Shown piece by piece: positions 1 through 52,260 of a DNA stretch of 53,580 nt. The stretch is from Acidobacteriota bacterium (GTDB lineage Bacteria > Acidobacteriota > Blastocatellia > Pyrinomonadales > Pyrinomonadaceae). The stretch lies in NCBI GenBank assembly GCA_040006435.1, contig JBDTWZ010000001.1:1-53580 (forward strand), read 5' to 3'. Each line of letters begins with the position of its first letter. Within the stretch, counting starts at the first letter, position 1. Below the pieces are notes generated by a model that saw only the letters and a program-made list of their open reading frames with translations, did not search any database and was not told where the DNA came from. Made by a program: the position numbers and the translations under genes.

Positions 1-113
1 ACGACGCTCTGCTTGTTTCCTGAATCATAGAACATTCGCAGGTCCGGAAGGCGGGCTTGCCCCCGCTCATTCGTTGCGTGAGAATATGCTTCACGCAGAC
101 AAAGAGGAATGCC

Positions 114-1808
114 ATGGTAACCAACTTAATTTCTTATTCCCTCACGCCTGATTTGCAGGACGCCGTGCAAGCTGAGGTCGAATCCTGGAAAGCGGACGAC
201 AAGGTCGCGCGCATTTGGGCGCGGGACGCTTCTGTCTGGACCGGCAACGACGAAGAACAGTGGCTCGGATGGCTGGATATTGTCGATCAAGAGTTAGGTG
301 ATCTTAAGAAATACCGAGACCTTGCCGCGGAAATCGAGCAAGCCGGATTCACAGACATTCTACTGATGGGAATGGGCGGCTCATCGTTGTGCCCCGAAGT
401 CCTCGCGATGACGTTTGGCAAAACAAACTTTCACATTCTCGACTCGACCGTGCCGGCGCGGGTCAAAGCCGTCGAGGACAAACTCGATCTCCCGAAAACT
501 CTTTTCATCGTCGCAAGCAAATCGGGCTCGACACTCGAGCCGAATTGTTTCAAACAATATTTCTTTGAACGCGTTTCTCAGATTTCCGAGACGCCCGGAA
601 AACAATTCGTCGCCATCACCGATCCCGGTTCGAAGATGGAGCAGATCGCGAAGGCCGATGGATTTCGACACATCTTCTACGGAAATCCGGAGATCGGGGG
701 GCGATTTTCGGCCCTGTCGGCGTTTGGCCTTGCGGCGGCTGCCTCGATGGGTTTGGATGTTGAGATCCTCTTGCAACGAGCCTCGGAGATGATTTCCGAA
801 TGCCGCAACCTCGTGCCGCAGGAAAATCCCGGCGCACCGCTTGGACTGATTCTCGGCGTATGCCATCGACATGGAAAGGATAAGCTGACGATCTTTGTTT
901 CGCCGGCGCTTCACGATGTCGGAGCGTGGCTCGAACAATTGATCGCCGAATCCACCGGCAAGAACGGCGTCGCGATAATTCCGGTGGATCGAGAGCCGAT
1001 GATCGACGCGGAGAATTATCACAGTGACCGGGTGTTCGTACACCTCGGTATGAAAGACTCGGCCACCGATGAGCGAATTCACCAAGGGTTGGAAGATATC
1101 GAACGCGCGGGACACCCGATGATCCGCATCGAACTCGAATCGCTCTATCACATCTCACAGGAATTTTTCCGTTGGGAGTTTGCGACAGCCGTCGCCGGTT
1201 CGGTGATGAAGATCAATCCGTTCAATCAGCCGGATGTCGAATCGGCAAAGATCGAGGCGCGGAGGATCACCGATCAGTATGAAGAGACCGGCTCGCTTCC
1301 CGACGAAACTCCGTTTTTCGAAGAGAGTGGAATCGCGTTATTCAGCAATGATGCGAACGTCGCGGCACTGGACGTTATCGCCGGTGATACCCGTTCGCTT
1401 GCCGGATATCTAAAAGCTCACATCTCGCGTATCGAGGCAAACGACTATTTCGCATTGCTCGCTTACGTTGAAATGAATTCGGAGAATGAAACTCTGTTGC
1501 AGGCCCTGCGCGAAACCGTCCTCAATCAGACCCTCGCTGCAACCTGTCTCGGCTTCGGTCCCCGATTCTTGCACTCTACCGGTCAGGCGTACAAGGGTGG
1601 CGGGAACAACGGAGTCTTTTTACAGATAACTGCCGACGACGAAGCCGATCTTCCGGTGCCGAAACAACAATATTCTTTTGGCATTGTGAAGTCGGCGCAG
1701 GCACGCGGCGACTTTCAGGTACTGCTGGATCGAGGACGGCGGGCGCTTCGTGTGCATTTACCGCCTGATGTTCGGAGCGGATTGTCTCGTCTTCTCGAGT
1801 GTCTCTGA
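114..1808 (+). CDS. pgi: glucose-6-phosphate isomerase
   Basis: Long ORF with SIS/PGI motifs MGMGGSSLCPEV and SKSGSTLEP. The ATG at 114 is preceded by AGAGGA and is preferred over the TTG at 57 used by the ORF track. Confidence 0.9.
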   Translation: MVTNLISYSLTPDLQDAVQAEVESWKADDKVARIWARDASVWTGNDEEQWLGWLDIVDQELGDLKKYRDLAAEIEQAGFTDILLMGMGGSSLCPEVLAMTFGKTNFHILDSTVPARVKAVEDKLDLPKTLFIVASKSGSTLEPNCFKQYFFERVSQISETPGKQFVAITDPGSKMEQIAKADGFRHIFYGNPEIGGRFSALSAFGLAAAASMGLDVEILLQRASEMISECRNLVPQENPGAPLGLILGVCHRHGKDKLTIFVSPALHDVGAWLEQLIAESTGKNGVAIIPVDREPMIDAENYHSDRVFVHLGMKDSATDERIHQGLEDIERAGHPMIRIELESLYHISQEFFRWEFATAVAGSVMKINPFNQPDVESAKIEARRITDQYEETGSLPDETPFFEESGIALFSNDANVAALDVIAGDTRSLAGYLKAHISRIEANDYFALLAYVEMNSENETLLQALRETVLNQTLAATCLGFGPRFLHSTGQAYKGGGNNGVFLQITADDEADLPVPKQQYSFGIVKSAQARGDFQVLLDRGRRALRVHLPPDVRSGLSRLLECL

Positions 1809-1897: not shown

Positions 1898-3847
1898 CTA
1901 GACACCAACCGTTTCGTCGTCTTCGATCAAATACGGCGAAACTGACGCCTTATCGATATCTTCTTCGAGAACCTTTGCGATCACAGGCAGAGACAGCGAA
2001 CGCGTTTTCTGGATTCCCGGAACTTCCTTTCCCTTCGCATAGACGGCGTGACGGCCGTTTTCCTGATACCACTCGGAAAGTGATGCCGTCTTGTGCATCT
2101 CTTCGATGATCTGCCGCCAGCCAACGCCGGTGTTGTATGCGCAAAAGCTGATCTCGCCTTCCTGCGTTCCGTACGGAATTACGCACATCTCGGTGCGGCG
2201 GAAGTCGTAGTTAAAAAGATCCTGGAACCACATTCCTTCGACACATAGAACGCGCCAAACGTCATCGTCGGATTTCTCGACCTTCATTCGATCGTTTCGG
2301 TCCGAGTTCGATGTCGTCGACGATGGTTTGAAAAGATTGATGATCTGCGAGATCGGGAATCCATCCGGAGCTTTCGCCGCGTCGTAATTGCGCATGATCG
2401 CCATCCCGAGTTGGGCCATCGTCAGCTTTTTGCCCCGGGCAGTATCGGTGATCGTCGCGACGTCCTTCATGAACTGCTCGTAGTTGAAAAATTCGAACAG
2501 CGATTTCGTCAGGCCGCTCTTTTTGTTGACGACCATCAGCGTGAATATCCCGCAATTCGGATGGCAATTGCACGACGACCAACCCCACGGAGCATCGGCA
2601 CCTTGCAGCATGTCCATGACGGATGTAAACGCGGAATAGCTGGACAGCGGAAACCAATCGCGCATCGGCTCGAGCACACCATCAAGCTGTTCTTTCAGAT
2701 CGTGCGTCATTCCCGCAAGTGTGTATCGCTGTTTGATGCGGTCCTCATCCGAAATGTCCTCATCGCGTCCGGTGAACGATACGGGCTGGAACGCGATCGT
2801 TTGAACCTTGTCGATGTTCTCCGCGGCAAATTTCACGATGCTGCCAATCCCGTTGTTGTTCCAGGAATTTACGATGGTCGTAACGAGCGTCACCTTAACA
2901 CCGACCGACGCGAGATTCTCGATCGCCTTGAGCTTGACGTCGAACAGATTGCCGACGCCACGATGCTCGTTGTCTTTCTCGTTGGTTCCGTCGAACTGAA
3001 GATAAACGCCGTGCTGGCCCGCTTCTTTCGCTGCCTTGCAAAACTCGATGTCCTCGGCATAACGGATGCCGTTAGTCGCGGCGAGAATCCGGTAGAATCC
3101 GACCTTCTTCGCGTAAGCAACGGCGTCGAGAAAGTATGGCGAGAGCGTCGGCTCGCCGCCTGAGAACAAAATGATGATCTGACGTTTTGGCTTGAACGAG
3201 ACGGCTCGATCGAGGATCGCTTTCGTATCTTCGAACGTCGGTTCGTGAACGTATCCAACCTGGTTCGCGTCCATAAAGCACGGATTGCACATCATGTTGC
3301 AGCGGTTGGTCAGATCTACGGTGAGCACCGCTCCGCGGCCGAACTTAATATCGCTCGTCCCGTGATGATGAACGTGTTTGTCCTCAGCCGCTTTGAAATC
3401 ACGTCCATAAAAAAGCGATTCGATACGGTTAAGAAAAGCGGAGTCGGTCGCCAGTACGTCAACGAACTCGCCGTGCGTTGTGCATGTCTTTCGCATCAGC
3501 ACCTGGCCGTTTTCTTCGACGATCTGGGCCTTGATCTCGCCCGGATGCGAATCCATCAAAATGTTCAGCGGAATGTCGCCGGAGATCACGCCGTTGCGGA
3601 CAGACTTTACGCATGAAGGACACAAGCTGTCGGTCTCGCGAGGAAATCCCAGCGGAGGCGCCGTACGTTCGTACGATTTCAAGAGCGGCTCGGCGGCCCA
3701 TGCGGGCTGTATCGACTCGCCTTCAGGAATCGCCTTATTGAGAGCCTGAAACGCCTTCCAGCCAAGATCGGCCATCTTTGAAACGGCCTTCGAACCTGTC
3801 TTGCCGTTCCCCTTTCCTTCACCTCGTCTGAAATTATCGCTAAACAT
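1898..3847 (-). CDS. large radical SAM enzyme with N-terminal Zn-ribbon-like segment and Cys-rich C-terminal half (possible tetraether-lipid-synthase-like protein)
   Basis: CNMMCNPC (CxxxCxxC) cluster motif, FSGGEPT SAM motif, N-terminal CPSC...CTTHGEF segment and C-terminal SSCNCHPNCG / CVIPYG...FCAYN cysteines. Start set at ATG 3847 (alternative 3775). The ORF-track extension to 4207 overlaps the divergent MOSC gene and is rejected. Confidence 0.85.
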   Translation of the reverse strand: MFSDNFRRGEGKGNGKTGSKAVSKMADLGWKAFQALNKAIPEGESIQPAWAAEPLLKSYERTAPPLGFPRETDSLCPSCVKSVRNGVISGDIPLNILMDSHPGEIKAQIVEENGQVLMRKTCTTHGEFVDVLATDSAFLNRIESLFYGRDFKAAEDKHVHHHGTSDIKFGRGAVLTVDLTNRCNMMCNPCFMDANQVGYVHEPTFEDTKAILDRAVSFKPKRQIIILFSGGEPTLSPYFLDAVAYAKKVGFYRILAATNGIRYAEDIEFCKAAKEAGQHGVYLQFDGTNEKDNEHRGVGNLFDVKLKAIENLASVGVKVTLVTTIVNSWNNNGIGSIVKFAAENIDKVQTIAFQPVSFTGRDEDISDEDRIKQRYTLAGMTHDLKEQLDGVLEPMRDWFPLSSYSAFTSVMDMLQGADAPWGWSSCNCHPNCGIFTLMVVNKKSGLTKSLFEFFNYEQFMKDVATITDTARGKKLTMAQLGMAIMRNYDAAKAPDGFPISQIINLFKPSSTTSNSDRNDRMKVEKSDDDVWRVLCVEGMWFQDLFNYDFRRTEMCVIPYGTQEGEISFCAYNTGVGWRQIIEEMHKTASLSEWYQENGRHAVYAKGKEVPGIQKTRSLSLPVIAKVLEEDIDKASVSPYLIEDDETVGV

Positions 3848-3955
3848 AATATTTGTCGGAGTGGGACGCACGAATCCCGGCGAACATCTTAACAAATATC
3901 TACCTGTCCTGCCCAATCTTGTGGCCCGTGGGCAAAATCGATATATTCGCCAATT

Positions 3956-4597
3956 ATGAGAGTTGTAACAGTTTCGGTGGGACAGCCGCAAATTGTTCAG
4001 ACTGGAAGCGAAGGATTTGTCCTCACGTCTATATTCAAGCATCGGGTTGACGGACGCGTGAGAGTGAATGAACTGAATCTTGCAGGCGATGCCCAGGCCG
4101 ACCTCACAGTACATGGCGGATGGAGCAAAGCTGTCTACGTTTACCCCGGTGAGCATTACGAATATTGGCGGAACGGGCTGCCGGAAATGGAACTGGGCGA
4201 TTCTCAATTCGGAGAGAACCTGACAACCGAAGGCTTGCTCGAAACCGAAGTATTTATCGGAGACAAAATTCGTATTGGAACAGCGGAGTTTGTCGTCACC
4301 GAACCCCGCATGCCGTGCTACAAACTCGGCATACGTTTTCGTCGAAAGGATATTCTTCGCCGGTTTCTACAGAGTCGAAAAAGCGGATTCTATCTTGCCG
4401 TAACAAAGACGGGGGAGCTTGCGGCCGGCGACGATATCGAAATTCTATCTCGAGATAAAAACGAGGTAACGGTCACGGATATCGTCAGGGTGTGGGTCCA
4501 GGACAAGGACGATCGAGAGACGATGGCGCGCGCTTTAAATATTGATGCGTTTCCCGAAAGCTGGAAGGAACCGTTCCGCGACCGACTCGCGGGTTAG
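3956..4597 (+). CDS. MOSC domain-containing protein (YiiM-like)
   Basis: 213 aa with typical MOSC beta-barrel motifs (GDAQADLTVHGG, TEPRMPCYKLG). The ATG start is divergent from the radical-SAM gene. Confidence 0.85.
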   Translation: MRVVTVSVGQPQIVQTGSEGFVLTSIFKHRVDGRVRVNELNLAGDAQADLTVHGGWSKAVYVYPGEHYEYWRNGLPEMELGDSQFGENLTTEGLLETEVFIGDKIRIGTAEFVVTEPRMPCYKLGIRFRRKDILRRFLQSRKSGFYLAVTKTGELAAGDDIEILSRDKNEVTVTDIVRVWVQDKDDRETMARALNIDAFPESWKEPFRDRLAG

Positions 4598-6035: not shown

Positions 6036-7346
6036 TTACTCGAAGGCCTCCAAATATTTCACGCCAGAACCGGTGTTGAATAGCACGACAGTTTCACCAT
6101 CTTTAACCTCGGCTCGATCGATCAGTGTTAGTAAGGCGGGCAGGCACGCAGCACCCTCGGGAGCGGCAAAAACACCTTCGGTCGCACCGATCTCGCCGAC
6201 GGCTTTCACTAATTCTTCATCGCTCACAGCAATCGCGGTTCCACCCGATGCTCGGATAGCATCTAGGATCAAAAAATCGCCGATGGCTTTTGGAACTCGA
6301 AGGCCGGACGCGACGGTCGAAGCATTCTCGAATTCGTCAGCAAATCTGTCTCCTTTCTCGAACGCCCGCACTATCGGAGCGCAAGTTGCCGATTGGACCG
6401 TTACCATTCTTGGACGGCGCGAATCGATCCAGCCCATCTGCTCCATCTCGTCGAACGCTTTCCACATTCCGATCAAGCCGGTGCCGCCGCCGGTGGGATA
6501 AATGATCACGTCGGGTAAGTAGCGGGCTCTCTGATCGGGCACCACCCCGTCATCCGCTTCGCGGATGCCACCCCTCCTTAAACCAGGAGGGGAGCTATGT
6601 GCCAAACTCCCCTCCTGGTTTAAGGAGGGGTGGCCGAGGCTTTGCGAGGCCGGGGTGGTGCTGTAAGCGCCAAACTGTTCGAAGAGCTCATACCCCATCG
6701 TCTTCTTGCCTTCGACACGATACGGCTCTTTCAGCGTAGATACGTCAAACCAGCCTTCGGCCTCTTTTCTCTCGGCGACTATCTTTCCGCAATCCGTGAT
6801 CAAGCCGTCGACGAGAGTGACGTGCGCTCCCGTCTGCTCGCATTCGACGATGTTCGCTCGCGGAGTGTCGGATGGCATAAAGATAAATGCTTCCATTCCG
6901 GCTCGTGCGGCATACGCTGCCATCGCTCCCGCGGCGTTCCCCGCCGAAGGGACGGCGACCTTTTTCACGCCTAGCTCCTTTGCCATCGAGATCGCGGCCG
7001 TCATGCCGCGGGCTTTGAAGCTCTGCGTCGGGTTCTGGCCCTCGTCCTTGATGAACAGGTTTAGTTTGATCGGCAGTTTTTCCGCAAGTCGGCCGGCTTT
7101 TAGAAGCGGTGTCCAGCCTTCGCCAAAACTAATAATGTTGTCGGGGTTTTCAACCGGCAACACTTCGCGGTATCGCCACAATGACGATTCCCTCGACGCG
7201 AGTGCATCCGGCGTTATTGTCGCCGCAGCTTTTTCGAGGTCATATCGAACGAGCAGCGGCTTGCCGCATTCGACGCAGAGATTCTGCAGTTTATTCGCTT
7301 CGTGCCGCAGTCCGCAGAGCGCGCATTCGAGGTGTGTGACGTTCAT
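6036..7346 (-). CDS. thrC: threonine synthase carrying a 41-codon in-frame repeat insertion
   Basis: N-terminal Cys4 ribbon (CALCG...CVECG), PLP lysine motif TQSFKARG and glycine loop YPTGGGTGLIG. Start set at ATG 7346 (MNVTHLE), which removes the overlap with the upstream gene. Confidence 0.9.
   Translation of the reverse strand: MNVTHLECALCGLRHEANKLQNLCVECGKPLLVRYDLEKAAATITPDALASRESSLWRYREVLPVENPDNIISFGEGWTPLLKAGRLAEKLPIKLNLFIKDEGQNPTQSFKARGMTAAISMAKELGVKKVAVPSAGNAAGAMAAYAARAGMEAFIFMPSDTPRANIVECEQTGAHVTLVDGLITDCGKIVAERKEAEGWFDVSTLKEPYRVEGKKTMGYELFEQFGAYSTTPASQSLGHPSLNQEGSLAHSSPPGLRRGGIREADDGVVPDQRARYLPDVIIYPTGGGTGLIGMWKAFDEMEQMGWIDSRRPRMVTVQSATCAPIVRAFEKGDRFADEFENASTVASGLRVPKAIGDFLILDAIRASGGTAIAVSDEELVKAVGEIGATEGVFAAPEGAACLPALLTLIDRAEVKDGETVVLFNTGSGVKYLEAFE
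6539..6661. repeat. 123-bp nested palindromic element inside thrC
   Basis: Outer 11-bp inverted repeat GCACCACCCCG/CGGGGTGGTGC (6539-6549, 6651-6661). Inner perfect 27-bp inverted repeat (6568-6594, 6607-6633) with a 12-nt loop. Each inner arm contains its own 8-bp hairpin CCCCTCCT-TAAACC-AGGAGGGG. Confidence 0.9.
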
Positions 7347-7383
7347 AGACCGAATCAATATAGCTCGAGCAGCGAGCTCCGGG

Positions 7384-8064
7384 TCACTTCTTCCAAACAA
7401 ATTCTTTGAACAAATTGAAGGCGGCATTAAAGCCGAGTGAGAGGGTACCGCTTCGAACGCCATCTTTCCAATCGTATCGATCCGGGTACCACGTTTCGTA
7501 GGCGATGATGCTCGACGTGAATGTTCCGGCTAAGTTCGGGACGCCGATGACACGCTTACCATACCTATCACGCGCCGTGACGGGCGAGATGAGTACGTTC
7601 CGGATGCGGGCGGACACGCTTTTTTTCCGACTGCGATAGAAATGACTGTCCAATTTCATCGCTTCGTCGAGACCAAACTTCGTAGTTTGTTTGATCGCAT
7701 TCTTACCAAAGTTGGATGCGACGCGGCGCCCAAAACCTTCCCATTTCGTTCCCCACTCTGCCGGCGAATTACGCCAGGTAGAAATTCCCGCGGTCGCGAT
7801 CATTCTTCCAAGAGCGAACGGCCCAACGGTGCTGTTGATGAACCGCTTTTGGCGCGTAGCAGCGGTAGGTCGAACATAGTCAGTAGACGGCTTCACCGTG
7901 AATAGCCCGGGCTGAACCGTCGACCTTTGGAGTTCTTTATTCTGGTCTTTATCCGCAAGGTCGGTTGCGGTCGTTGGATCTGGTGTCGGCGTCGGTGTGG
8001 GGTCCTGCGCTAGTGTGACAGACGTCGCGAACAGAAGAGTCATTAGCAAAAAGTGCGGTTTCAT
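7384..8064 (-). CDS. hypothetical secreted protein
   Basis: Signal peptide MKPHFLLMTLLFATSVTLAQ followed by a PTPTPTPDP linker. No recognisable catalytic motif. Confidence 0.6.
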   Translation of the reverse strand: MKPHFLLMTLLFATSVTLAQDPTPTPTPDPTTATDLADKDQNKELQRSTVQPGLFTVKPSTDYVRPTAATRQKRFINSTVGPFALGRMIATAGISTWRNSPAEWGTKWEGFGRRVASNFGKNAIKQTTKFGLDEAMKLDSHFYRSRKKSVSARIRNVLISPVTARDRYGKRVIGVPNLAGTFTSSIIAYETWYPDRYDWKDGVRSGTLSLGFNAAFNLFKEFVWKK

Positions 8065-8843: not shown

Positions 8844-8937
8844 TTGAGGTGTGAGGTATGAAGTATAAGCGGTGAACTAAAAAGAGCCCGGTCAAAGGTT
8901 CTTTCATCATTCACCATGCATACTTCACACTTCACCG
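8844..8937 (+). repeat. heptamer-periodic GTGA/TCAC hairpin element (copy 1), ending 6 nt before the ybbA ATG
   Basis: Left arm GAGGTGT GAGGTAT GAAGTAT AAGCGGT, core CCGGTCAAA, right arm TTCATCA TTCACCA TGCATAC TTCACAC TTCACCG. The arms are partly complementary (GTGTGAGGTATG against CATACTTCACAC). Confidence 0.65.
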
Positions 8938-8943
8938 TTTTTT

Positions 8944-9609
8944 ATGATCCAACTGAACTCAGTCACAAAAACCGTCCGCTCGGGGACGGAAAATCTCACT
9001 ATCTTGTCCGACGTTTCGCTCGACATTCCCGGAGGGCAGTTTGTCGCATTGACCGGGGCGTCCGGCAGCGGCAAATCGACTCTGCTCGGTTTGATCGCCG
9101 GTCTGGATGCACCAAGTTCCGGAACGATCCTGATCGACGGTGACGACATAACAAGTATAAGCGAGGACGGTCTGGCAGAGATCCGAAGCGCAAAGATCGG
9201 GTTCGTATTCCAGTCGTTTCATCTGATCCCCAGTCTTACGGCGCTGGAGAACGTTCTTATTCCAATGGAGATCAGGGGGCTCAGCGACGCCGGTGATCGG
9301 GCGTCCGAGCTTTTGCGAGATGTTGACCTGACCGATCGGGGCCATCATTATCCGGCGGAGCTTTCGGGCGGCGAGCAACAGCGTGTCGCGATAGCTCGTG
9401 CATTTGCGAACCGGCCAAAGATCCTTCTCGCGGACGAACCGACCGGTAATCTCGATTCGAAAAACGGCCGGCACATTTTTGAGTTAATGACCCAGCTTCA
9501 TACGGAGCGGGCCGTGACACTTGTTCTCGTAACGCACGATCACGGGTTGGCGGCTGAGGCACAGCGTCAGATCGTTTTGAAAGACGGACGGGTGATTAGC
9601 GATGAGTGA
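8944..9609 (+). CDS. ybbA: ABC transporter ATP-binding protein (LolD/YbbA-like)
   Basis: Walker [10 protein letters not shown], signature LSGGEQQR, Walker [10 protein letters not shown]. Symbol assigned by synteny with tesA and the FtsX permease. Confidence 0.85.
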
Positions 9610-9690
9610 CGAGGTATGAGCGTCGTCGCGAGAATCGCCGCCGGTCAAACTCTTTTCACTTTTCACTTTTCACTCGTCACTCATCACTCG
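9599..9690 (+). repeat. heptamer-periodic GTGA/TCAC hairpin element (copy 2), spanning the ybbA stop and ending 7 nt before the ybbP ATG
   Basis: Perfect 13-bp inverted repeat GATGAGTGACGAG (9601-9613) / CTCGTCACTCATC (9673-9685). Core CCGGTCAAA. Tandem 7-mers ACTTTTC ACTTTTC ACTCGTC ACTCATC ACTCG (9658-9690). Confidence 0.8.
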
Positions 9691-15530: not shown

Positions 15531-17408
15531 CTATTCCGCTCGAAGGATTAGTTTGTAGATCGTGTACATGCCCACGACCTCGCCGCCATCCCGTACGTAC
15601 CATTTATCGAGATTGCTGAGATCGGTGTCCGCATCGTTCCTTACCACGGCGTAGGACAGCATGGGGTTTGCGGCGTTGACGGCGTTGAATGCGGACCTAT
15701 AGGCGGCGTAGCGCTCGACCTCAGAGTCGATCTCACCATAGGTCAGCGGCGTTGCTTCGCTGCTCAGACGATCGGTGTGTCTTCCCCAACCAAAGAGCGC
15801 GATCTTCGTGACGAAGTCATTTTTCAAAAGATAATCCAGAACCTCTTCATCGACATTTGAGTAATAAAGATATTGAAAGTAACGGTCCTTATTTTCCTGC
15901 CAGGACATCCCGGCAAATACATGCTGATGACGCGACCACAGAACGTTCTGCGGCGCGATGCTCGGCAAATCGTCCGACTGGATCATGTCGTACGCCAGCA
16001 CGGTGGAGCGATACGGATCGACATCCTCTAGTGACAACTCTTCGAGTCGTTTCGCGACTGGCAGCGCAATATCGCGCTCGACGTTCGCACCGTCCAGGAC
16101 GCGCACCGTGTAATGGCACTCGACAAATCCCCAGAGGATCGCGACGATGGCAAGCGATGCGCAGGCTAGTTTCGCCCGGGCACTTTCTATACTCAACCAT
16201 TGGCGAAGCAAAACTCCGATGGTCACGATCAGAGCGAGTGCCGCAACATAATTCCCGATGAACACCTGATAATGGATCGGCTGCAGCGAACGTCCAGTGA
16301 CGATCTGCTGATTGAAGATAATAAAAGGAACAAGAGCCAGCGAGAGTGCGAATAGAGTCGACCTGTCGCCCGGAGCGATCATCCTTTTCGTGACGCCGAC
16401 AGCAAGCAACAGCAGACATATCAAGCTTACATATTCGGGCATCCGCCACAGGTCCGGCACCCGCGTGTAAACCAAGAGTTGGACGTCGTCCATCGTCTCG
16501 GACCGTTTCGAAAGCAGCCAGGCGTACGGAATGACGGCGAGTGCACAGCCGACCCCGACGGCGATAAGGTTCTTTATATCCCGCCCAAAACTTTCCGGCC
16601 GAAATACAAGCCAGACAACGAAAAGACATCCGAGCCAGGCGGCCGCAGTCGTCCAGATGTAGAAATAAGAGAAGACGGTGTAGGCGAAGAGAAAGATCGC
16701 GGCGGTGAGAAATAAATAGCGCTGGAGAGCGGAACCGGTAGCGACCGGTTTTCCCGGTGATGGATCGATCGCCTTGACGGGCGACCCGGTCGCTACCGCT
16801 CCCGGTTCTGACTTCCGTTCTTCAACAAGGCGCCAGACCACCGCAAACAAACCGAACACTGCGGCCATTGCCATCGCCGGAATATATCGGCGAAATCCGG
16901 GAAAGTACGGATAAGAGAATCCATCGAAGAATATCTCGGGCATCGCACCTTCGCCCGCGGCCAGGGCTCCGCCTGCGAATACGACAAGCGAACCGGCCAT
17001 TCCGAACCAACTGCTCCCGGTGATCCGCGCGATCAGCCAAAACGCAGCAAGCGCCGCCAGAAAGCCCGCGGCGGCTCCGGACAAGGTCATCGCCCACGGC
17101 GTTCCGACACCAAGGATCCGCGCAGGGATCGCGATCGAGTATGGCGCGGCGAATTGGATGGAAAAAAGTGATTCGGGCTGCGGCGTCAAAGGCGATTCGT
17201 CGCGACCCGAATAAGGATCATTCTTCCGCGGACGGCCGTCGATCAACGCACGAACGTAAGAGGCATAAGCAACTTCGTCGATGTCGTTGTATGCGTAGTG
17301 CCCGTTCCACTCCGACCCGCGCAGATAGAACATGTTCAACTGCGGGTAGAGGCAAAAAATTGCAAGGAATACAGCGGCGACAATGCCGAAGCGCCAGCGA
17401 AGCTTCAT
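15531..17408 (-). CDS. large polytopic membrane protein of unknown function carrying an in-frame palindromic repeat
   Basis: 625 aa with at least 10 hydrophobic segments and a soluble C-terminal domain. No catalytic motif recognised. Confidence 0.75.
   Translation of the reverse strand: MKLRWRFGIVAAVFLAIFCLYPQLNMFYLRGSEWNGHYAYNDIDEVAYASYVRALIDGRPRKNDPYSGRDESPLTPQPESLFSIQFAAPYSIAIPARILGVGTPWAMTLSGAAAGFLAALAAFWLIARITGSSWFGMAGSLVVFAGGALAAGEGAMPEIFFDGFSYPYFPGFRRYIPAMAMAAVFGLFAVVWRLVEERKSEPGAVATGSPVKAIDPSPGKPVATGSALQRYLFLTAAIFLFAYTVFSYFYIWTTAAAWLGCLFVVWLVFRPESFGRDIKNLIAVGVGCALAVIPYAWLLSKRSETMDDVQLLVYTRVPDLWRMPEYVSLICLLLLAVGVTKRMIAPGDRSTLFALSLALVPFIIFNQQIVTGRSLQPIHYQVFIGNYVAALALIVTIGVLLRQWLSIESARAKLACASLAIVAILWGFVECHYTVRVLDGANVERDIALPVAKRLEELSLEDVDPYRSTVLAYDMIQSDDLPSIAPQNVLWSRHQHVFAGMSWQENKDRYFQYLYYSNVDEEVLDYLLKNDFVTKIALFGWGRHTDRLSSEATPLTYGEIDSEVERYAAYRSAFNAVNAANPMLSYAVVRNDADTDLSNLDKWYVRDGGEVVGMYTIYKLILRAE
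16729..16812. repeat. palindromic GTAGCGACC-type element inside the membrane-protein gene
   Basis: Perfect 12-bp inverted repeat GGTAGCGACCGG (16737-16748) / CCGGTCGCTACC (16786-16797) around an ATCGAT centre. The right half (16778-16812) is 33/35 identical to 20597-20631. Confidence 0.85.
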
Positions 17409-17470
17409 AAGATGAAAACCCTAAAGTAGCACATCACTCGAAGCTTGTCCCTCGTGTTAAAATCGACAGC

Positions 17471-18181
17471 ATGAAAACTTATTTCGCGTCCTGTCGTCTG
17501 GTGGCGCTCGTAGGGTGTCTGACCATAGTTCTGTGCCTCGGACTGGATCTCAAGACACACGCGCAGGATACGGAACCTAGACTTCTATCACAGCCGGGAT
17601 TTGTTCTGTCGGAAAAAGCCGTTGCAGCCGGCATCGACGGTGTATTCAACGTATCCCTCTCGATAGACAAGACTGGTAAGGTGAAAACGGTAACTCTTCA
17701 TGGCGGTCCCGCGTGGCCATGCAACACCTCACCATGGTCCGAGATCGAATCGGTACGTGACGCAGTGAAAAAACATCTCATGTCGATAGTCTTCGCACCT
17801 GCGACAAAGAACGGAAAACCGTATGACGTGGATGTAAGGCTGGACTTTGCTATCGGCGAAGCGTATAAGCGTGCGGTAGCGATCGAAGAGGCTGAAAAGG
17901 CTGCCGCCGCGGGAAAGCTGATCGTCGTCAAAGCCGGAGTGGTCAATGGAAAAGCGATTCGCTTAACGAAACCTCGGTACGCGGGCATTCGGGGCGTGGT
18001 GACGATTCAGGTTTTGATAGATGAAAGGGGGAACATTGCGAACGCAGGGGGAATGAGCGGGCATCCATTTCTAGTAAAGAGCGCTCGTGAAGCCGCTTGC
18101 GAATCTAAGTTTTCACCCACGATCATAGAAGGCAAGCCGGTTAAAGTTACCGGGATTATCACGTACAACTATGTTCCTTAG
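17471..18181 (+). CDS. secreted protein with two TonB-C-like domains
   Basis: Signal peptide. The C-terminal module GIRGVVTIQVLIDERGNI...GHPFL..SAREAA..SKF.P....GKPVKV matches the TonB C-terminal fold signature. An N-terminal degenerate copy is present. Confidence 0.7.
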   Translation: MKTYFASCRLVALVGCLTIVLCLGLDLKTHAQDTEPRLLSQPGFVLSEKAVAAGIDGVFNVSLSIDKTGKVKTVTLHGGPAWPCNTSPWSEIESVRDAVKKHLMSIVFAPATKNGKPYDVDVRLDFAIGEAYKRAVAIEEAEKAAAAGKLIVVKAGVVNGKAIRLTKPRYAGIRGVVTIQVLIDERGNIANAGGMSGHPFLVKSAREAACESKFSPTIIEGKPVKVTGIITYNYVP

Positions 18182-18255: not shown

Positions 18256-18840
18256 ATGAAACTCGGACTACTCTGCCTGCTGCTGTTGTTACCCTCCTTT
18301 GCTTTCTCGGGCGAGATCGAGGAACAAAACAAAGCTCTCGCACGTCGCTTCTACGAAGAAGTATGGTTCAAAAACAATCCTGCGGCGGTCGATGAAAGCT
18401 TCGCGCCGACCTACATCGCCCACGACATCGGAGATCGCAAGAACTCGATGGAGCCGGCGGACGAGCAGAAGAAGATCGCCCAGTTCTTTTGGGACCGCGG
18501 ATCGATGACCGGTACGATCGATTACCAGATCGCCGAGGGCGATCTGGTCGCGACGCGCTGGCAGTGGTATTTCAAACCGAACGTCTGGTGGATGAAGCTG
18601 CTCGGCGGCAGCGAGCAGCACATCCCGATCATAAACGTCATGCGCATTCGCGATGGCAAGATAGTCGAGATCTGGAACCACCGACACGACATCGACACGA
18701 TGCAGGCGAACTTCATTTTTGTGAAAGGGTTGGTCGCGGGGCTGATTCCATCTATCATACTTCTGGTTTTGATGTTCTTGATGTGGCGAAGATCACGGAG
18801 GAATAGGATTTTGAGTCCGCGTCCGACGCGAGAAGCTTGA
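18256..18840 (+). CDS. SnoaL-like (ester cyclase-type) protein with C-terminal membrane anchor
   Basis: Signal peptide, NKALARRFYEEVW motif typical of SnoaL-like folds, and a C-terminal hydrophobic helix LVAGLIPSIILLVLMFLMW. Confidence 0.6.
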   Translation: MKLGLLCLLLLLPSFAFSGEIEEQNKALARRFYEEVWFKNNPAAVDESFAPTYIAHDIGDRKNSMEPADEQKKIAQFFWDRGSMTGTIDYQIAEGDLVATRWQWYFKPNVWWMKLLGGSEQHIPIINVMRIRDGKIVEIWNHRHDIDTMQANFIFVKGLVAGLIPSIILLVLMFLMWRRSRRNRILSPRPTREA

Positions 18841-22168: not shown

Positions 22169-22183
22169 TCTTAGCGATTGTCG

Positions 22184-22501
22184 CGGAGCGACCACATGCA
22201 TTTAGCCGTGGCCTTAAGGCCACGGCTTCCGACGACCCGTTCCTGCCGCATCAGCGGTAGTTGGTTCAATTGCCGCTAACGCGGCAAGAATTACTTGCAT
22301 CCTCCAACCGTGGCCTGAAGGCCACGGCTAAAGGCGTCTGCCCGCTACGCGGTCAGCTCGCCGGATCGAGGGTCGAGGCGACGCGGTCGGGTCGAGGCAA
22401 GGTGGGCGAGGCAAGGTCGTCGCGTAGCGACCGCATGCATTTAGCCGTGGCCTTAAGGCCACGGTTTTCCGACGACCCCGTTCCTGCCGCGTCAGCGGTA
22501 G
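22184..22501. repeat. cluster of three REP units (alternating orientation, BIME-like)
   Basis: Units of about 80 nt. Each has a GTAG-containing head (CGCGTAGCGACC), hairpin core GCCGTGGCC-loop-GGCCACGGC (cores at 22205-22226, 22308-27, 22444-64) and a second small hairpin CTGCCGC-NTCA-GCGGTAG. The middle unit is inverted. Confidence 0.9.
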
Positions 22502-22507
22502 GTGAAA

Positions 22508-22960
22508 TCAATCGAAAACATATTGCAGGTCGTACTCGATGCCATGCAGCCTGAGCAGCGAGATATATTCCTCTTCGAAGGTCTCGCCATTGTGATGCTC
22601 CCGCTGGTTCTCGATGTATCGAATTACGTCCGGAACTTGTGATTTACTTACGGAGAATATCCCGTAGCCGTCCTGCCAGCCGAAATAGCTCAGGTTCGAG
22701 AATTCGTCGTGAATCCACTTGGAAGAGCCACCTTTTAGCCACATTGGGATCTTGCACGGCGGAACGACCGGCTTCGCCATAACAAGTCCGTGAACGTGAT
22801 TCTCGATGCCTCCAACTCTTAAAGAGGTTACGTCGTGTTTCCGTGCGATTCCGCCGATATAGTTCCAAACACGTTCTTCGATCTCTTGGTAAATAAAGTT
22901 ACGCCGCTCTTTCGTACTAAAGACGATGTGGTAGAAGAGTTGGGAATACGTGTTTGCCAT
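22508..22960 (-). CDS. REP-associated tyrosine transposase (RAYT; IS200/IS605 TnpA Y1 family)
   Basis: 150 aa with HUH motif HVHGLV, catalytic-Tyr region WQDGYG, and N-terminal YHIVFSTKERR typical of Y1 transposases. REPs flank it on both sides in inverted orientation. Confidence 0.9.
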   Translation of the reverse strand: MANTYSQLFYHIVFSTKERRNFIYQEIEERVWNYIGGIARKHDVTSLRVGGIENHVHGLVMAKPVVPPCKIPMWLKGGSSKWIHDEFSNLSYFGWQDGYGIFSVSKSQVPDVIRYIENQREHHNGETFEEEYISLLRLHGIEYDLQYVFD

Positions 22961-31426: not shown

Positions 31427-31528
31427 GTGTCTATTATAGACGATGCACGATCGAACTCTTTTTATTCCCTGAGACTTCTCTTATAATAGCCCGTCGAACG
31501 TATCGATCATCCCTGTTATGACTTGTTT

Positions 31529-33499
31529 ATGAAGATCAACGACTTTGTAGTCCGCTTTGCGAATGTGAACGGTACCGGTTCGGCATCGGCCAACGCACTG
31601 TTTACAAAGGCAGTGTTTCGCATGGGCGTGCCGGTGACGCCGAAGAATATCTTTCCGTCGAATATCCAGGGGCTGCCGACGTGGTACGAGGTGCGTATTT
31701 CGGAAGGCGGACATCTCGGCCGCCGCGAGGGCGTCGATCTGATGATCGCGGTCAATCCGCAGTCGATGAAAAAGGATTACGCCGATGTTCGCGAGGGCGG
31801 CTATTTTCTTTACGACTCCTCGAAGCCCCTCGCACCCGGTTACGATCGGACCGACATCACCCATATCGGCATCCCGCTGATGACTCTCTGCAATGCAGAG
31901 TTTACCGACGCACGCCAGCGCCAGCTTTTCAAGAACATCGTCTATATCGGAGCCCTTGTCGCTCTGTTCGGGATCGAGTTTGAAATGCTCGAGCAGCTCG
32001 TCGGCGAACAGTTCCGCGGTAAGGAAAAATTGATCGAGCCTAACATCCGGGCGCTCAACATCGGGGTGAAATACACGCGGGAGAATTTCGAATGTCCGTT
32101 AGACATACGCGTCGAACGCCGCGACCTGCTCGGCGATAAAGTTCTTTACAGCGGCAATTCGGCGTGCGCACTCGGTGCGATCTATGCCGGAGCAACCGTC
32201 GCCGCGTGGTATCCGATCACACCTTCAACATCGGTCGTCGATGCGTTTGCCAAGTATGCCGCTAAGTACCGCGTCGACGCCGAGACGGGTATGAACAACT
32301 ACGCGATCGTGCAGGCCGAGGACGAACTCGCGGCGATCGGAATGGTAATGGGCGCGTGCTGGAACGGCGCACGTGCGTTCACCGCGACGAGCGGCCCGGG
32401 CATCTCTCTGATGAACGAGTTCCTCGGCCTCGGCTATTTTGCCGAGGTGCCGACGGTGCTAATAGACGTACAACGAACCGGCCCATCCACCGGCATGCCG
32501 ACGCGGACACAGCAATCCGACATTTTGCTCGCGGCGTATGCGTCGCACGGCGATACAAAACATCCGCTGTTGTTCCCAGCCTCGCCGAAGGAATGTTTCG
32601 AGATGACGGCCGACGCCTTCGATCTGACCGAGCGTCTTCAGACGCCGGTCATCGTCATGACGGATCTCGATCTCGGGATGAACGATCACATCACCGAGCC
32701 TCTTGTTTGGGATGACGCCCGTAAATTTGACCGCGGCAAGGTCCTTACAGCCAGACATCTTGAACGCCTCGGCGGTGCGGCACTGGCTGATATCGTCGAG
32801 GGGATGGAGAACGAAACCGACGGCGACGCGTTCGCGGGCAGCGCCATTGAACAGTTTCGCGGTAAATTTGGCCGCTATCTTGACATCGACGACGACGGTA
32901 TTCCGTACCGCACAGTTCCCGGCGTTCATCCGACGCGCGGGGCATATGTCACACGCGGCTCATCGCGTGACGAGTACGCAGTCTACACCGAGGACGGCGA
33001 CGTCTATCGTCGCAACATGGACCGCCTCGCCCGCAAGTGGGACACGGCGAAGGAGCTGGTGCCGCAGCCGGAATTTTATGGCGACGCGGGGACGGGGCGA
33101 CACGGAGAAGGGGAGAAAGGGAGAAAGGGAGAGGGGCCGACCTCTGACTCGTCACTCGTCACTCGTCCCTCATCACTAAAAAATGACGCCGTCATTTTTT
33201 TCGGAACCTCCACATACGCAGCGATCGAGGCATTGGAGCTATTAGCCGATGAGGGAATCCGACTCGACGCGATGCGAGCCCGTGGATTCCCTTTTGGAAA
33301 GTCGTTTCGTGATTTCATCGACTCACACGACCGCGTCTTCGTCATCGAACAAAACCGCGATGCGCAGTTTCGCAGCCTGATGATGATCGAATTAGGAGTC
33401 GACGCATCAAAGCTTGTTTCGGTCCTAAACTACGACGGGATGCCGATCACGGCGGACAACATCTTCATACAGATTAATTCATTTTCTCAGGACCAATGA
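31529..33499 (+). CDS. korA: 2-oxoacid:ferredoxin oxidoreductase, fused gamma-alpha subunit, with an in-frame repeat insertion
   Basis: N-terminal gamma-like VNGTGSASANALF...PSNIQGLPTWYEVR, and alpha domain with TGPSTGMPTRTQQSD. ATG 31529 preferred over TTG 31523. No beta-subunit gene follows. Confidence 0.85.
   Translation: MKINDFVVRFANVNGTGSASANALFTKAVFRMGVPVTPKNIFPSNIQGLPTWYEVRISEGGHLGRREGVDLMIAVNPQSMKKDYADVREGGYFLYDSSKPLAPGYDRTDITHIGIPLMTLCNAEFTDARQRQLFKNIVYIGALVALFGIEFEMLEQLVGEQFRGKEKLIEPNIRALNIGVKYTRENFECPLDIRVERRDLLGDKVLYSGNSACALGAIYAGATVAAWYPITPSTSVVDAFAKYAAKYRVDAETGMNNYAIVQAEDELAAIGMVMGACWNGARAFTATSGPGISLMNEFLGLGYFAEVPTVLIDVQRTGPSTGMPTRTQQSDILLAAYASHGDTKHPLLFPASPKECFEMTADAFDLTERLQTPVIVMTDLDLGMNDHITEPLVWDDARKFDRGKVLTARHLERLGGAALADIVEGMENETDGDAFAGSAIEQFRGKFGRYLDIDDDGIPYRTVPGVHPTRGAYVTRGSSRDEYAVYTEDGDVYRRNMDRLARKWDTAKELVPQPEFYGDAGTGRHGEGEKGRKGEGPTSDSSLVTRPSSLKNDAVIFFGTSTYAAIEALELLADEGIRLDAMRARGFPFGKSFRDFIDSHDRVFVIEQNRDAQFRSLMMIELGVDASKLVSVLNYDGMPITADNIFIQINSFSQDQ
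33104..33200 (+). repeat. composite periodic repeat inside korA (purine octamers, ACTCGTC heptamers, 11-bp palindrome)
   Basis: GGAGAAGG GGAGAAAG GGAGAAAG GGAGAGGG (33104-33135). ACTCGTC x3 plus CCTCATC ACT (33147-33177), shared with 9672-9688. AAAAAATGACG-C-CGTCATTTTTT (33178-33200). Confidence 0.8.
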
Positions 33500-33569
33500 G
33501 ACCCACGCTGAAGTCAAGGCACGCATCTGACGGAGGCGCGAGGAGCGTCTTGTCTCGTTCCGCATAACC

Positions 33570-34400
33570 TCACGATGTTTGGCGGAATGAATGTGATAGT
33601 ACCCGGGCCATGTTTAGATTTTCAGTTTCGGAAAGATCAGATACAACGAACACGGCCCGCCTATCCTGAGCAAAGCTTGCGACCTGCAATCCATCTTCGA
33701 ACTCGCTGGTGATCGGGCCAGGTACGCCGTCTCGGGATTCCGCGACGACATCAGTCTTGTCGAAAAAAACTGACACTATGTTGCGGCCGTTCCTGACAAC
33801 GACGTGGGTAAATTCCTTTCCCCGGAATTCACAGTCGTGGACGCTCAACATCTCCATCGAATCGGAATATTTTTCTTTTAGCGGAGCGAGTATCTTGTCA
33901 CTATAAACTGCCTTTTCGGGATAGTCCGTCTCCGACATGCGTTCCCACCTGGCGAGCTTTTCCAGTGCGCAGTCCTTGTGGTTTCCTGAAGCAAAGTGCA
34001 CCAGCTCAGCTACGCCATTTGAAAGCGGGTCGTTCCCGTTCGGCCCGCCGAACCCTAGGCTGCTCAGATAATACGAGCCAAATCCGAAGGCGATCAGTAG
34101 AGATGCAACAATCGGGATCAGCACTCGGCGGCTTGTCGATAATTTTGTCCAGAGGCCGGCACCAAGTGCATCTTCCCTCAGACGATTTTTCAATCCCGTA
34201 GCGAAAGAAGGATCGATCCGAAACTCGGCGGCGTTCACGGCAGCCGACGACACGCGTCTGCGCAGCGCACGACGCGATGCAAAGTCTGTTCGGCAATCCG
34301 AACAGTGTTCGAGGTGATGATTTACCTGATGATGGGTTTCCACCAAAAGCTCGTCACTCAGGTACGATTCTGAAATTTCTCGAAATTCCCGGCACTTCAT
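33570..34400 (-). CDS. anti-sigma factor (zf-HC2, single-pass membrane)
   Basis: MKCREF...HLEHCSDC zinc-finger motif, one transmembrane helix and a periplasmic C-terminal domain. Start at ATG 34400, 13 nt after the sigma-factor stop. Confidence 0.8.
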   Translation of the reverse strand: MKCREFREISESYLSDELLVETHHQVNHHLEHCSDCRTDFASRRALRRRVSSAAVNAAEFRIDPSFATGLKNRLREDALGAGLWTKLSTSRRVLIPIVASLLIAFGFGSYYLSSLGFGGPNGNDPLSNGVAELVHFASGNHKDCALEKLARWERMSETDYPEKAVYSDKILAPLKEKYSDSMEMLSVHDCEFRGKEFTHVVVRNGRNIVSVFFDKTDVVAESRDGVPGPITSEFEDGLQVASFAQDRRAVFVVSDLSETENLNMARVLSHSFRQTS

Positions 34401-51937: not shown

Positions 51938-52003
51938 GAATGAAGTTTAGCAGACGCGTACCCGCAAATCGGCGAGATGCCGACAAGGCACGCCGCGTCG
52001 GGC

Positions 52004-52175
52004 CGCGTAGCGGCCGCTCGCATTTAGCCGTGGCCTTCAGGCCACGGATGAAGGTCAACAAATCTTGCCGCGTCAGCGGCAATTGAGAATTCGTGCGGTC
52101 GCTACGCGACGCAATTGATTTTTCCGACTACCCGTGGCCTAAGGGCCACGGCTAAACTCGATTGACCGCGACGGG
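52004..52175. repeat. REP doublet of the same family as at 22.2-23.0 kb
   Basis: CCGCGTAGCGGCCGCTCGCATTTAGCCGTGGCCTTCAGGCCACGG...CTTGCCGCGTCAGCGGCAA, then an inverted, partly rearranged unit with core CCGTGGCCTAAGGGCCACGGCTAAA (52132-52155). Confidence 0.85.
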
Positions 52176-52260
52176 GGCAAAGAATTTGTAGGCCGTCGGC
52201 GTGAGCTCAGTCAAGATTGAAGCAGTGCGTGCATTTCACGAGATGGGTTAAAATATCTCC

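Follow-up and report, generated by a model that had tools for sequence, protein, structure and literature searches.

The window analysed here is a 53,580-nt (53.6-kb) stretch of contig JBDTWZ010000001.1 from an Acidobacteriota bacterium, and its korA gene (open reading frame (ORF) 31523..33499, + strand) hosts the repetitive insert that is the subject of this work. The gene encodes a fused gamma and alpha subunit of 2-oxoacid:ferredoxin oxidoreductase with the domains PF01558 and PF01855. Its best match in the Protein Data Bank (PDB) is 6n2n_A (E = 1.6e-56), and of its 8000 homologues the named ones belong to Pyrinomonadaceae (Acidobacteriota, Blastocatellia). The translation includes ...GRHGEGEKGRKGEGPTSDSSLVTRPSSLKNDAVIFFG..., and direct reading confirmed that a periodic composite lies in frame in korA where the original prediction, made from the nucleotide sequence, had placed it.

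The insert begins with an 8-nt array (33080..33143, + strand) of eight units of the form GGNGANNN, which encodes GDAGTGRHGEGEKGRKGEGP. It opens with GGCGACGC GGGGACGG GGCGACAC and includes, at 33104-33135, the purine 8-mers GGAGAAGG GGAGAAAG GGAGAAAG GGAGAGGG; Tandem Repeats Finder (TRF) detects a 16-nt period over 33080-33129 and an 8-nt period over 33104-33132. The 8-nt periodicity predicted from the four purine units is real, but the array is longer, and the separate core predicted at 33137-33146 (CCGACCTCTG) is largely the eighth unit, GCCGACCT. A heptamer array follows at 33147..33177 (+ strand), consisting, exactly as predicted, of three perfect ACTCGTC units, CCTCATC and ACT, and encoding DSSLVTRPSSL. 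TRF assigns it period 7 and 4.4 copies, of which three are perfect, so that it contains the three or more head-to-tail copies of a 7-nt unit expected of a heptanucleotide array. In the orientation found in korA, the ACTCRTC heptamer has no stop codon in any frame, while its reverse complement contains TGA. Dimers of the heptamer (at most two mismatches) occur six times in the window vs 0.72 times in shuffled sequences, and dimers of the 8-mer four times vs 0.16; no second copy of the purine 8-mer block was found within the window.

The two halves of the insert, purine 8-mers and ACTCRTC heptamers, are mutually non-complementary, and the RNA fold of the insert (-41.9 kcal/mol, z = 0.00 against 200 shuffles) is no better than that of shuffled sequences. 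It therefore does not form the stem-loop of an imperfect palindrome, which other alleles at this site do form (for example, L124, -43.1 kcal/mol). Scans for terminators and promoters called nothing at the insert, and a search of 32000-34000 against Rfam at a permissive threshold gave nothing there, with a sub-threshold archaeal snoRNA match elsewhere in korA. Neither terminal inverted repeats nor target duplications were seen at the insert.

The site was compared in 120 aligned orthologous proteins and in DNA from 87 loci (labelled L001 etc.). The alignment established that the segment is an in-frame insertion relative to KorA orthologues and gave its borders. In the window KorA, 39 residues separate ...PQPE from VIFFGTS, and the short form of the loop, found in many relatives, has 11 amino acids, FYQExNxSK(N/D)G, encoded by 33 nt; the same 33-nt form is present in the most distant loci recovered (65-67% identity). 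The insertion lies in the loop between FY and GVIFFG, directly before the first strand matching the C-terminal domain of 6N2N (domain II fold), and in the alignment with the family profile its counterpart in the Magnetococcus enzyme 6n2n is FY[KNMEVEGVEGEAD]VGIITWGS. At the 3' border the conserved residues are VIFFG only, and the preceding A, which had been counted as part of a conserved AVIFFG strand, is variable. An AlphaFold2 model built for loop exposure from a 52-sequence alignment was too poor to use (mean predicted local distance difference test score (pLDDT) 51; insert blocks 37-40, the next domain 63-83, domain I low too). A second variable loop lies near residue 420 of KorA, where some orthologues, though not the window protein, carry repeat-like peptides.

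The site holds 0-41 extra residues in Pyrinomonadaceae, and these are mostly translated heptamer arrays or hairpins like repetitive extragenic palindromic (REP) elements. The inserted peptide SSLVTRHSSL corresponds to (ACTCGTC)n, IQNPKSKIQN to (AAATCCA)n, SSFIPHPSSF to (CATCCTT)n, RISNIES...FDIRNSK to inverted ATTCGAA arrays and ADTPVRM...ADKSVRAP to long REP-like hairpins of -55 to -75 kcal/mol. Near-perfect long hairpins of dispersed families were found at the site in L153 (-68 kcal/mol), L171 (-66), L173 (-75) and L198 (-66). Inserted alleles span 45-156 nt, and the frame is continuous in 87/87 loci, with no frameshifted or out-of-frame allele among them. Like ACTCRTC, the AAATCCA and CATCCTT arrays are open in all three frames and their complements carry TGA once per three units; by reading, the left arm of the hairpin alleles in L124 and L125 is broken at the unit that would put a TGA in frame.

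A TRF census of arrays in 0.914 Mb of korA-centred loci identified period 7 as the commonest array period (30/90 arrays). Thirteen of these 30 arrays lie inside the korA site, which makes up 0.52% of the bases (binomial p = 2e-22, taken as a measure of concentration); they come from 12 loci and represent 11 distinct sequences and, by reading, at least five unit families. A census of perfect arrays, which gave only three period-7 arrays, was too strict and was replaced by TRF. In a neighbour-joining tree of the 120 orthologues the insert types are scattered, and the tree was too weak for counting independent gains.

The closest relative of the window, L001, is 96% identical at the amino acid level and 91.1% at the nucleotide level over korA. 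Its heptamer block (four ACTCATC units and ACC) has the same place and length as in the window, and one and the same position is changed in three units (ACTCGTC vs ACTCATC). The 8-nt array differs between the two at two of 64 nt, and this array type occurs at the korA site in L001, L002 and L126. In L002 (91% amino acid identity) five 8-mer units are retained, the ACTCRTC heptamers are replaced by (AAATCCA)5 and the palindrome is missing.

When the window is compared with L001, the divergence of the insert is the opposite of that usual in coding DNA. Fourfold degenerate sites differ at 1/22 positions in the insert vs 93/310 in the rest of korA (Fisher p = 0.007) and synonymous codon differences number 1/40 vs 136/617 (p = 0.001), while amino acid differences number 6/40 vs 21/617 (p = 0.004). 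Across the whole gene, the longest stretch without a mismatch between these two relatives is 33055-33126. Silent-site conservation was also observed in the L123/L125 pair and in pairs with REP-like inserts; inserts of the apparently old GTRDLG type are without it. Conservation of silent sites together with changing amino acids argues that the segment is maintained as DNA rather than as protein, and the proposal of repeat DNA rather than ordinary low-complexity protein sequence is thereby supported.

The (ACTCRTC)3 motif was found in at least 120 loci of a collection of species-representative genomes, many of them from Pyrinomonadaceae or other Acidobacteriota; Chloroflexota, Planctomycetota, Bacteroidota and others are represented among the matches listed. 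In these listed matches the arrays usually lie between genes, where a (GAYGAGT)n arm is followed by a short variable loop and then by an (ACTCRTC)n arm, which commonly stops a few bases short of an ATG. The loops have no conserved core, so there is no counterpart of the core of small dispersed repeats (SDRs). A minority of the arrays lie within long open frames, which, judging from translated flanks, resemble those of AlaRS, MurB and Gfo/Idh/MocA proteins.

The window itself contains the predicted relative of the korA heptamer block, ACTCGTCACTCATCACT at 9672-9688. This is part of an intergenic inverted-array hairpin (9598..9688, + strand; GATGAGTGACGAG ... (CTTTTCA)x3 CTCGTCA CTCATCA), which overlaps the stop codon of an ATP-binding cassette (ABC) ATPase gene, ends 10 nt short of the permease ATG and folds as RNA at -36.2 kcal/mol (z = -3.4). 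A second heptamer-type hairpin (8851..8935, + strand) lies between the GDSL lipase and ABC ATPase genes. In the sister loci L207 and L208 the ATPase-permease spacer holds different inverted 8-mer arrays (GTGAGAAR / YTTCTCAC) folding at -91.9 kcal/mol (z = -12.3) and -58.5 kcal/mol (z = -4.9), respectively, and the L208 spacer orthologous to 8851-8935 has about 12 heptamers per arm (-102.7 kcal/mol, z = -10.3). The copy number of orthologous intergenic arrays thus differs strongly between sister genomes, and comparison of these spacers indicates that the hairpin persists at its site while the arm units and their number change.

In L208 the 3' end of the ABC ATPase gene contains the G-rich 8-mer units known from korA, as GACACGGAGAATGGGAGACACGGTGACGCGGAGAAAG, and GRHGDAE/GRRGDAE/GEGEK tails are found in most of 120 ABC ATPase orthologues. 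The C-terminus of this protein (8944-9609 in the window; orthologues P0122-P0240) varies from 221 to 279 amino acids among close orthologues, depending on where in the following G-rich 8-mer array the stop codon falls; in the window the stop TGA sits within the left hairpin arm. Replacement of one T by G (GTGAGAAA to GGGAGAAA) would remove the TGA, which makes it a plausible origin of the purine block. Copying between loci is suggested by another array: AAATCCA units with the variant third unit AATCTAA form an identical 32-nt stretch in korA (L002) and, in frame, in the threonine synthase gene thrC (L208) of the same genome. The thrC array of the sister genome differs from that in L002 korA by one base. 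Identity over 32 nt, including the same variant unit, argues for copying or conversion between loci.

The original prediction had assigned the insert to a dispersed family. Both periodic blocks do belong to dispersed classes, but no locus other than korA of the window and of L001 was found to carry the four-part composite as a whole, and its 16-mers do not recur elsewhere in 0.91 Mb of related DNA. (Shared 13-mers were dropped, being near chance expectation and biased by the choice of loci, and were replaced by 16-mers on an unbiased set.) Beyond L001, KorA orthologues carry other inserts rather than the same segment, and both block types recur, in agreement with that prediction.

The composite ends in a perfect palindrome, AAAAAATGACG-C-CGTCATTTTTT (33178..33200, + strand), with 11-bp arms and a 1-nt loop. 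It covers the codons K-N-D-A-V-I-F-F, and the codons on its two sides are reverse complements (AAA/TTT, AAT/ATT and GAC/GTC; AAA AAT GAC for K-N-D and GTC ATT TTT for V-I-F). The palindrome is identical in L001 and is reduced to arms of 10 with a loop of 3 in L200 and to arms of 9 with a loop of 3 in L124; the arms are at most 5 bp in the 67 other alleles (71 scored). The four alleles with arms of at least 9 bp all read (L/F/P)KND(G/A)VIFF. This restriction to four alleles and the dependence on complementary codons speak against the palindrome as part of a mobile element, and the terminal palindrome is probably a by-product of mutually complementary codons. As RNA the hairpin is weak (-6.9 kcal/mol; the form with a 3-nt loop has two G-C pairs). 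No terminator-like site was called at 33178-33205, which lacks the G+C-rich stem with a T-run of an intrinsic terminator, and a metagenome scan with the palindrome plus its flank gave no matches. The prediction that such a palindrome exceeds chance expectation holds, since three distinct perfect inverted repeats with arms of at least 11 bp were found in the window vs 0.13 in shuffles. However, the other two, in REP elements at 22204-22227 and inside a gene at 18524-18548, make the korA palindrome unusual in the window, but not unique. The latter repeat has 11-bp arms and a 3-nt loop (ACCAGATCGCC-GAG-GGCGATCTGGT) and lies inside ORF 18256..18840 (+ strand).

The sole canonical G-quadruplex motif of the window, (G3+ N1-7)x4, is located on the sense (+) strand at 33110..33136 (GGGGAGAAAGGGAGAAAGGGAGAGGGG) and is conserved in L001 and L126. 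It has the four runs of at least three G spaced by 1-7 nt, and ViennaRNA with the G-quadruplex option predicts the quadruplex in the minimum-energy structure (-44.3 vs -41.9 kcal/mol); its formation is an energy-model prediction. Enrichment of such motifs was considered and rejected, as one motif vs 0.45 in shuffles is within chance. The motif is probably a by-product of the G-rich 8-mers.

The insert is probably a resident, repeat-built linker that is maintained at the DNA level and shaped by coding constraints. Two arrays, eight G-rich 8-mers and then about 4.4 ACTCRTC heptamers, occupy a KorA loop that seems to tolerate almost any peptide, the peptide probably acting as a passive linker. 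They are arrays of the kind that builds both arms of the long intergenic hairpins in this lineage. Such arrays would stay at the site and be remodelled as DNA, likely by replication slippage within the array and by copying or conversion between loci, with the result that unit type and copy number change between sister genomes. Within the gene, selection would ask only for a length that is a multiple of three and for the absence of stop codons. The latter demand would act as an orientation filter, since ACTCRTC is open in all frames and its complement carries TGA; the loss of arm complementarity in the coding copy, which forms no hairpin, may be due to this filter.

Several observations weigh against this linker model. 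The window and L001 inserts are equal in length, with no copy-number polymorphism seen, and neither slippage nor conversion was observed directly. Slippage within the array alone is insufficient to account for the low silent divergence, which needs conversion between loci or selection on the nucleic acid. As the alleles at the site are partly kin by descent, the enrichment of arrays there measures concentration and not independent events. Dispersal within the source genome rests on two intergenic elements in 53.6 kb, and surface exposure of the loop is presumed, the AlphaFold2 model having a mean pLDDT of only 51.

A mobile palindromic element, like the Rickettsia palindromic elements (RPEs), intragenic REPs or miniature inverted-repeat transposable elements, could instead have transposed in frame into a preferred target. 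We regard this as unlikely, though it deserves consideration, because other alleles at the site are long near-perfect hairpins of dispersed families with copies elsewhere, because thrC (with a 50-amino-acid insert) and a membrane protein gene of the window also bear in-frame hairpin repeats, because a Y1 transposase gene with flanking REPs lies in the window and because one genome has an identical 32-mer in korA and thrC. The window insert itself, however, has non-complementary halves that fold no better than shuffles, lacks visible terminal inverted repeats and target duplications, and as a composite was found nowhere else in the 0.91 Mb of related DNA; the REPs adjoining the transposase gene differ from it in sequence. 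Moreover, orthologous intergenic sites keep an array while its units change, which points to evolution in place and not to insertion and excision.

Structure in the nucleic acid might alternatively be the function, with a G-quadruplex and hairpin of the mRNA or DNA at the domain boundary slowing translation or attenuating korA transcription, so that any strongly structured repeat would fit. The conserved quadruplex motif, which is the only one in the window, the silent sites conserved while the peptide changes, the position of the longest mismatch-free run of korA over 33055-33126, the very stable hairpins of other alleles and the strong array enrichment at the site are consistent with this. 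Nevertheless, we consider it improbable: many orthologues, close ones included, are without an insert, the overall fold of the window insert has z = 0, the palindrome is weak (-6.9 kcal/mol), a single quadruplex motif in a window is no more than chance allows, the scan called no terminator-like site, no Rfam match was obtained, and the old GTRDLG-type inserts are without silent-site conservation. A phase-variable contingency tract, in which gain or loss of one 7- or 8-nt unit would shift the frame and turn korA off or on, is very improbable. The unit lengths are indeed not multiples of three and the ORF contains perfect tracts, of 3 units in the window and of 4.3 in L001, but the tracts are short, the frame is continuous in all 87 loci, the window and L001 are identical in length, and the gene affected encodes a core metabolic enzyme, not a surface or restriction function.

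Among described systems, RPEs and intragenic GTAG/CGTC REPs are palindromic repeats inserted in frame (Ogata et al. 2000, as summarized in PMC10969869; Di Nocera et al. 2013, PMC3733652; PMC3184786). As in those systems, dispersed repeat DNA lies in frame within housekeeping genes, leaves the frame intact and affects several genes per genome, the counterpart in the window being korA, thrC and the membrane protein gene within 53.6 kb. In contrast, the window insert consists of two tandem arrays of short units instead of a fixed-length palindromic unit, forms no hairpin and has no tie to the local Y1 REPs, and one codon position is refilled by many repeat families across a bacterial family. With regard to the multiple copies typical of RPEs and REPs, the composite has no second copy, and the 53.6 kb of the genome covered contain one relative of its heptamer part.

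Heptanucleotide arrays are the commonest long simple sequence repeats (LSSRs) in bacteria and polymerase slippage has been proposed as their source (Mrazek et al. 2007, as cited in PMC4679880 and PMC4692102); the short tandemly repeated repetitive (STRR) sequences of cyanobacteria are heptanucleotide repeats (Mazel et al. 1990, as cited in the same papers), and the TAACTGA repeats of Beggiatoaceae are reported inside ORFs only in the stop-free orientation (MacGregor 2015, PMC4679880). The arrays described here share with them the tandem 7-nt units, period 7 being the commonest, the mostly intergenic location, frequently just upstream of start codons, and the restriction to the stop-free orientation in ORFs. 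The unit also recurs as arrays elsewhere (9672-9688 and at least 120 loci with (ACTCRTC)3). Unlike those repeats, the arrays here are usually paired in inverted orientation as very stable hairpins, 7- and 8-nt units intergrade, the array lies in the middle of a conserved enzyme and not at a gene end, and the lineage is Acidobacteriota. G-rich GGGNATC heptamers of Xanthomonas and Nostoc form G-quadruplexes, four being the preferred number of units (Rehm et al. 2015, PMC4692102). The korA 8-mers resemble them as a G-rich short-unit tandem repeat supplying four G-tracts, the number that a quadruplex needs, whereas the unit here has 8 nt, the quadruplex is predicted and the motif is on the coding strand inside an ORF, where GGGNATC repeats are under-represented.

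The window insert is thus both a heptanucleotide array and an in-frame insertion, but not a palindromic unit, a REP linked to a REP-associated tyrosine transposase (RAYT), a terminator or a phase-variable tract. Small dispersed repeats of Nostoc are reportedly embedded in heptamer arrays; the present elements resemble them in their tandem heptamers, their hairpin potential and the signs that copies have recently passed between loci. A conserved core of 21-27 nt, however, was not found here, and the hairpin loops are variable. A full-text literature search returned no description of inverted 7/8-nt arrays as resident intergenic hairpins in Acidobacteriota, nor of one enzyme loop refilled with differing arrays and hairpins across a family.

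In-frame repeats in essential genes have mostly been discussed for Rickettsia and some REP-rich bacteria; here they are tandem 7-/8-nt arrays in free-living Acidobacteriota, and one loop of a central-metabolic enzyme behaves like a family-wide variable cassette evolving by DNA-level and not protein-level rules. This makes korA a tractable case for the origin, persistence and movement of heptanucleotide arrays, their reshaping by coding constraints and their possible effect on expression. In practice, segments of this type exaggerate how divergent and how variable in length proteins look in annotations and alignments. More speculatively, and with considerable doubt on our part, loops of housekeeping enzymes in Pyrinomonadaceae (the korA loop between FY and GVIFFG and the thrC loop before LPDVIIYPTGGG) may be landing pads for short-unit arrays and hairpin repeats. 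This could come about by one of two routes: an undescribed copy-and-paste or templated repair of whole arrays, hinted at by the 32-nt array, identical down to its variant unit, that korA and thrC of one genome share, or selection for mRNA structure at domain boundaries. If true, either mechanism would give the Rickettsia RPE phenomenon a counterpart in free-living soil bacteria, one in which a defined target is used again and again.

In the window, threonine synthase (thrC, ORF 6036..7463, - strand) contains a 50-amino-acid in-frame insert at 6519-6668 (...GHPSLNQEGSLAHSSPPGLRRGG...). The DNA encoding it is a hairpin element whose two 28-nt arms (6567-6594 / 6607-6634) are perfectly complementary, and the alignment with PDB 2zsj covers only residues 95-265 and 316-469. 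In L207 and L208 an in-frame (AATCCAA)n heptamer array occupies the site of this thrC insert instead. The frame of thrC in L208 (genome ERZ25039476) is apparently shifted upstream of the array at about 7500-7530 (GAGCTTGTTCGAACAG vs GAGCTCTTCGAACAG in the window and GAGCTCTTTGAACAG in L207), and the called gene has only 318 amino acids, which reflects either a real frameshift beside the array or a long-read assembly error. A predicted membrane protein of 625 amino acids without a Pfam match (ORF 15531..17408, - strand) has an in-frame inverted repeat at 16730-16804 with 27-nt arms, 81% complementary, encoding SEPGAVATGSPVKAIDPSPGKPVATGS. This EPGAVATG-type repeat was also found in the korA inserts of L127 and L183.

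A Y1 (IS200-like, PF01797) transposase gene (22508..22960, - strand) lies beside three REP copies (22182-22466; GCATGCATTTAGCCGTGGCCTTAAGGCCACGGC...), which include a 24-bp perfect palindrome, and more copies are present near 52.0-52.2 kb (52003-52176). In L001 the Y1_Tnp homologue is flanked by matching REPs in inverted orientation, an arrangement resembling RAYTs and REPINs (REP doublets forming hairpins). A link between this transposase and the korA insert was considered and rejected, as the flanking GCCGTGGCCTTAAGGCCACGGC-type REPs of the window and L001 are unrelated to the insert and to the heptamer arrays.

Downstream of korA lie genes of an anti-sigma factor and an extracytoplasmic function (ECF) sigma factor on the opposite strand. 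korB is not adjacent, and tblastn with korB from L123 as query gave no match in the 53.6-kb window; in L123, korB (16606-17622) is located 4.6 kb downstream of korA, with five unrelated genes between. Finally, an 18-nt inverted repeat, 94% complementary (ATAAAGGAGATGAAGGGG / CCCCTCCATCTCCTTTAT), at 1830-1884 separates the convergent ORFs 57..1808 (+ strand) and 1898..4207 (- strand); its position fits a bidirectional terminator, and its arms resemble decayed heptamer units.

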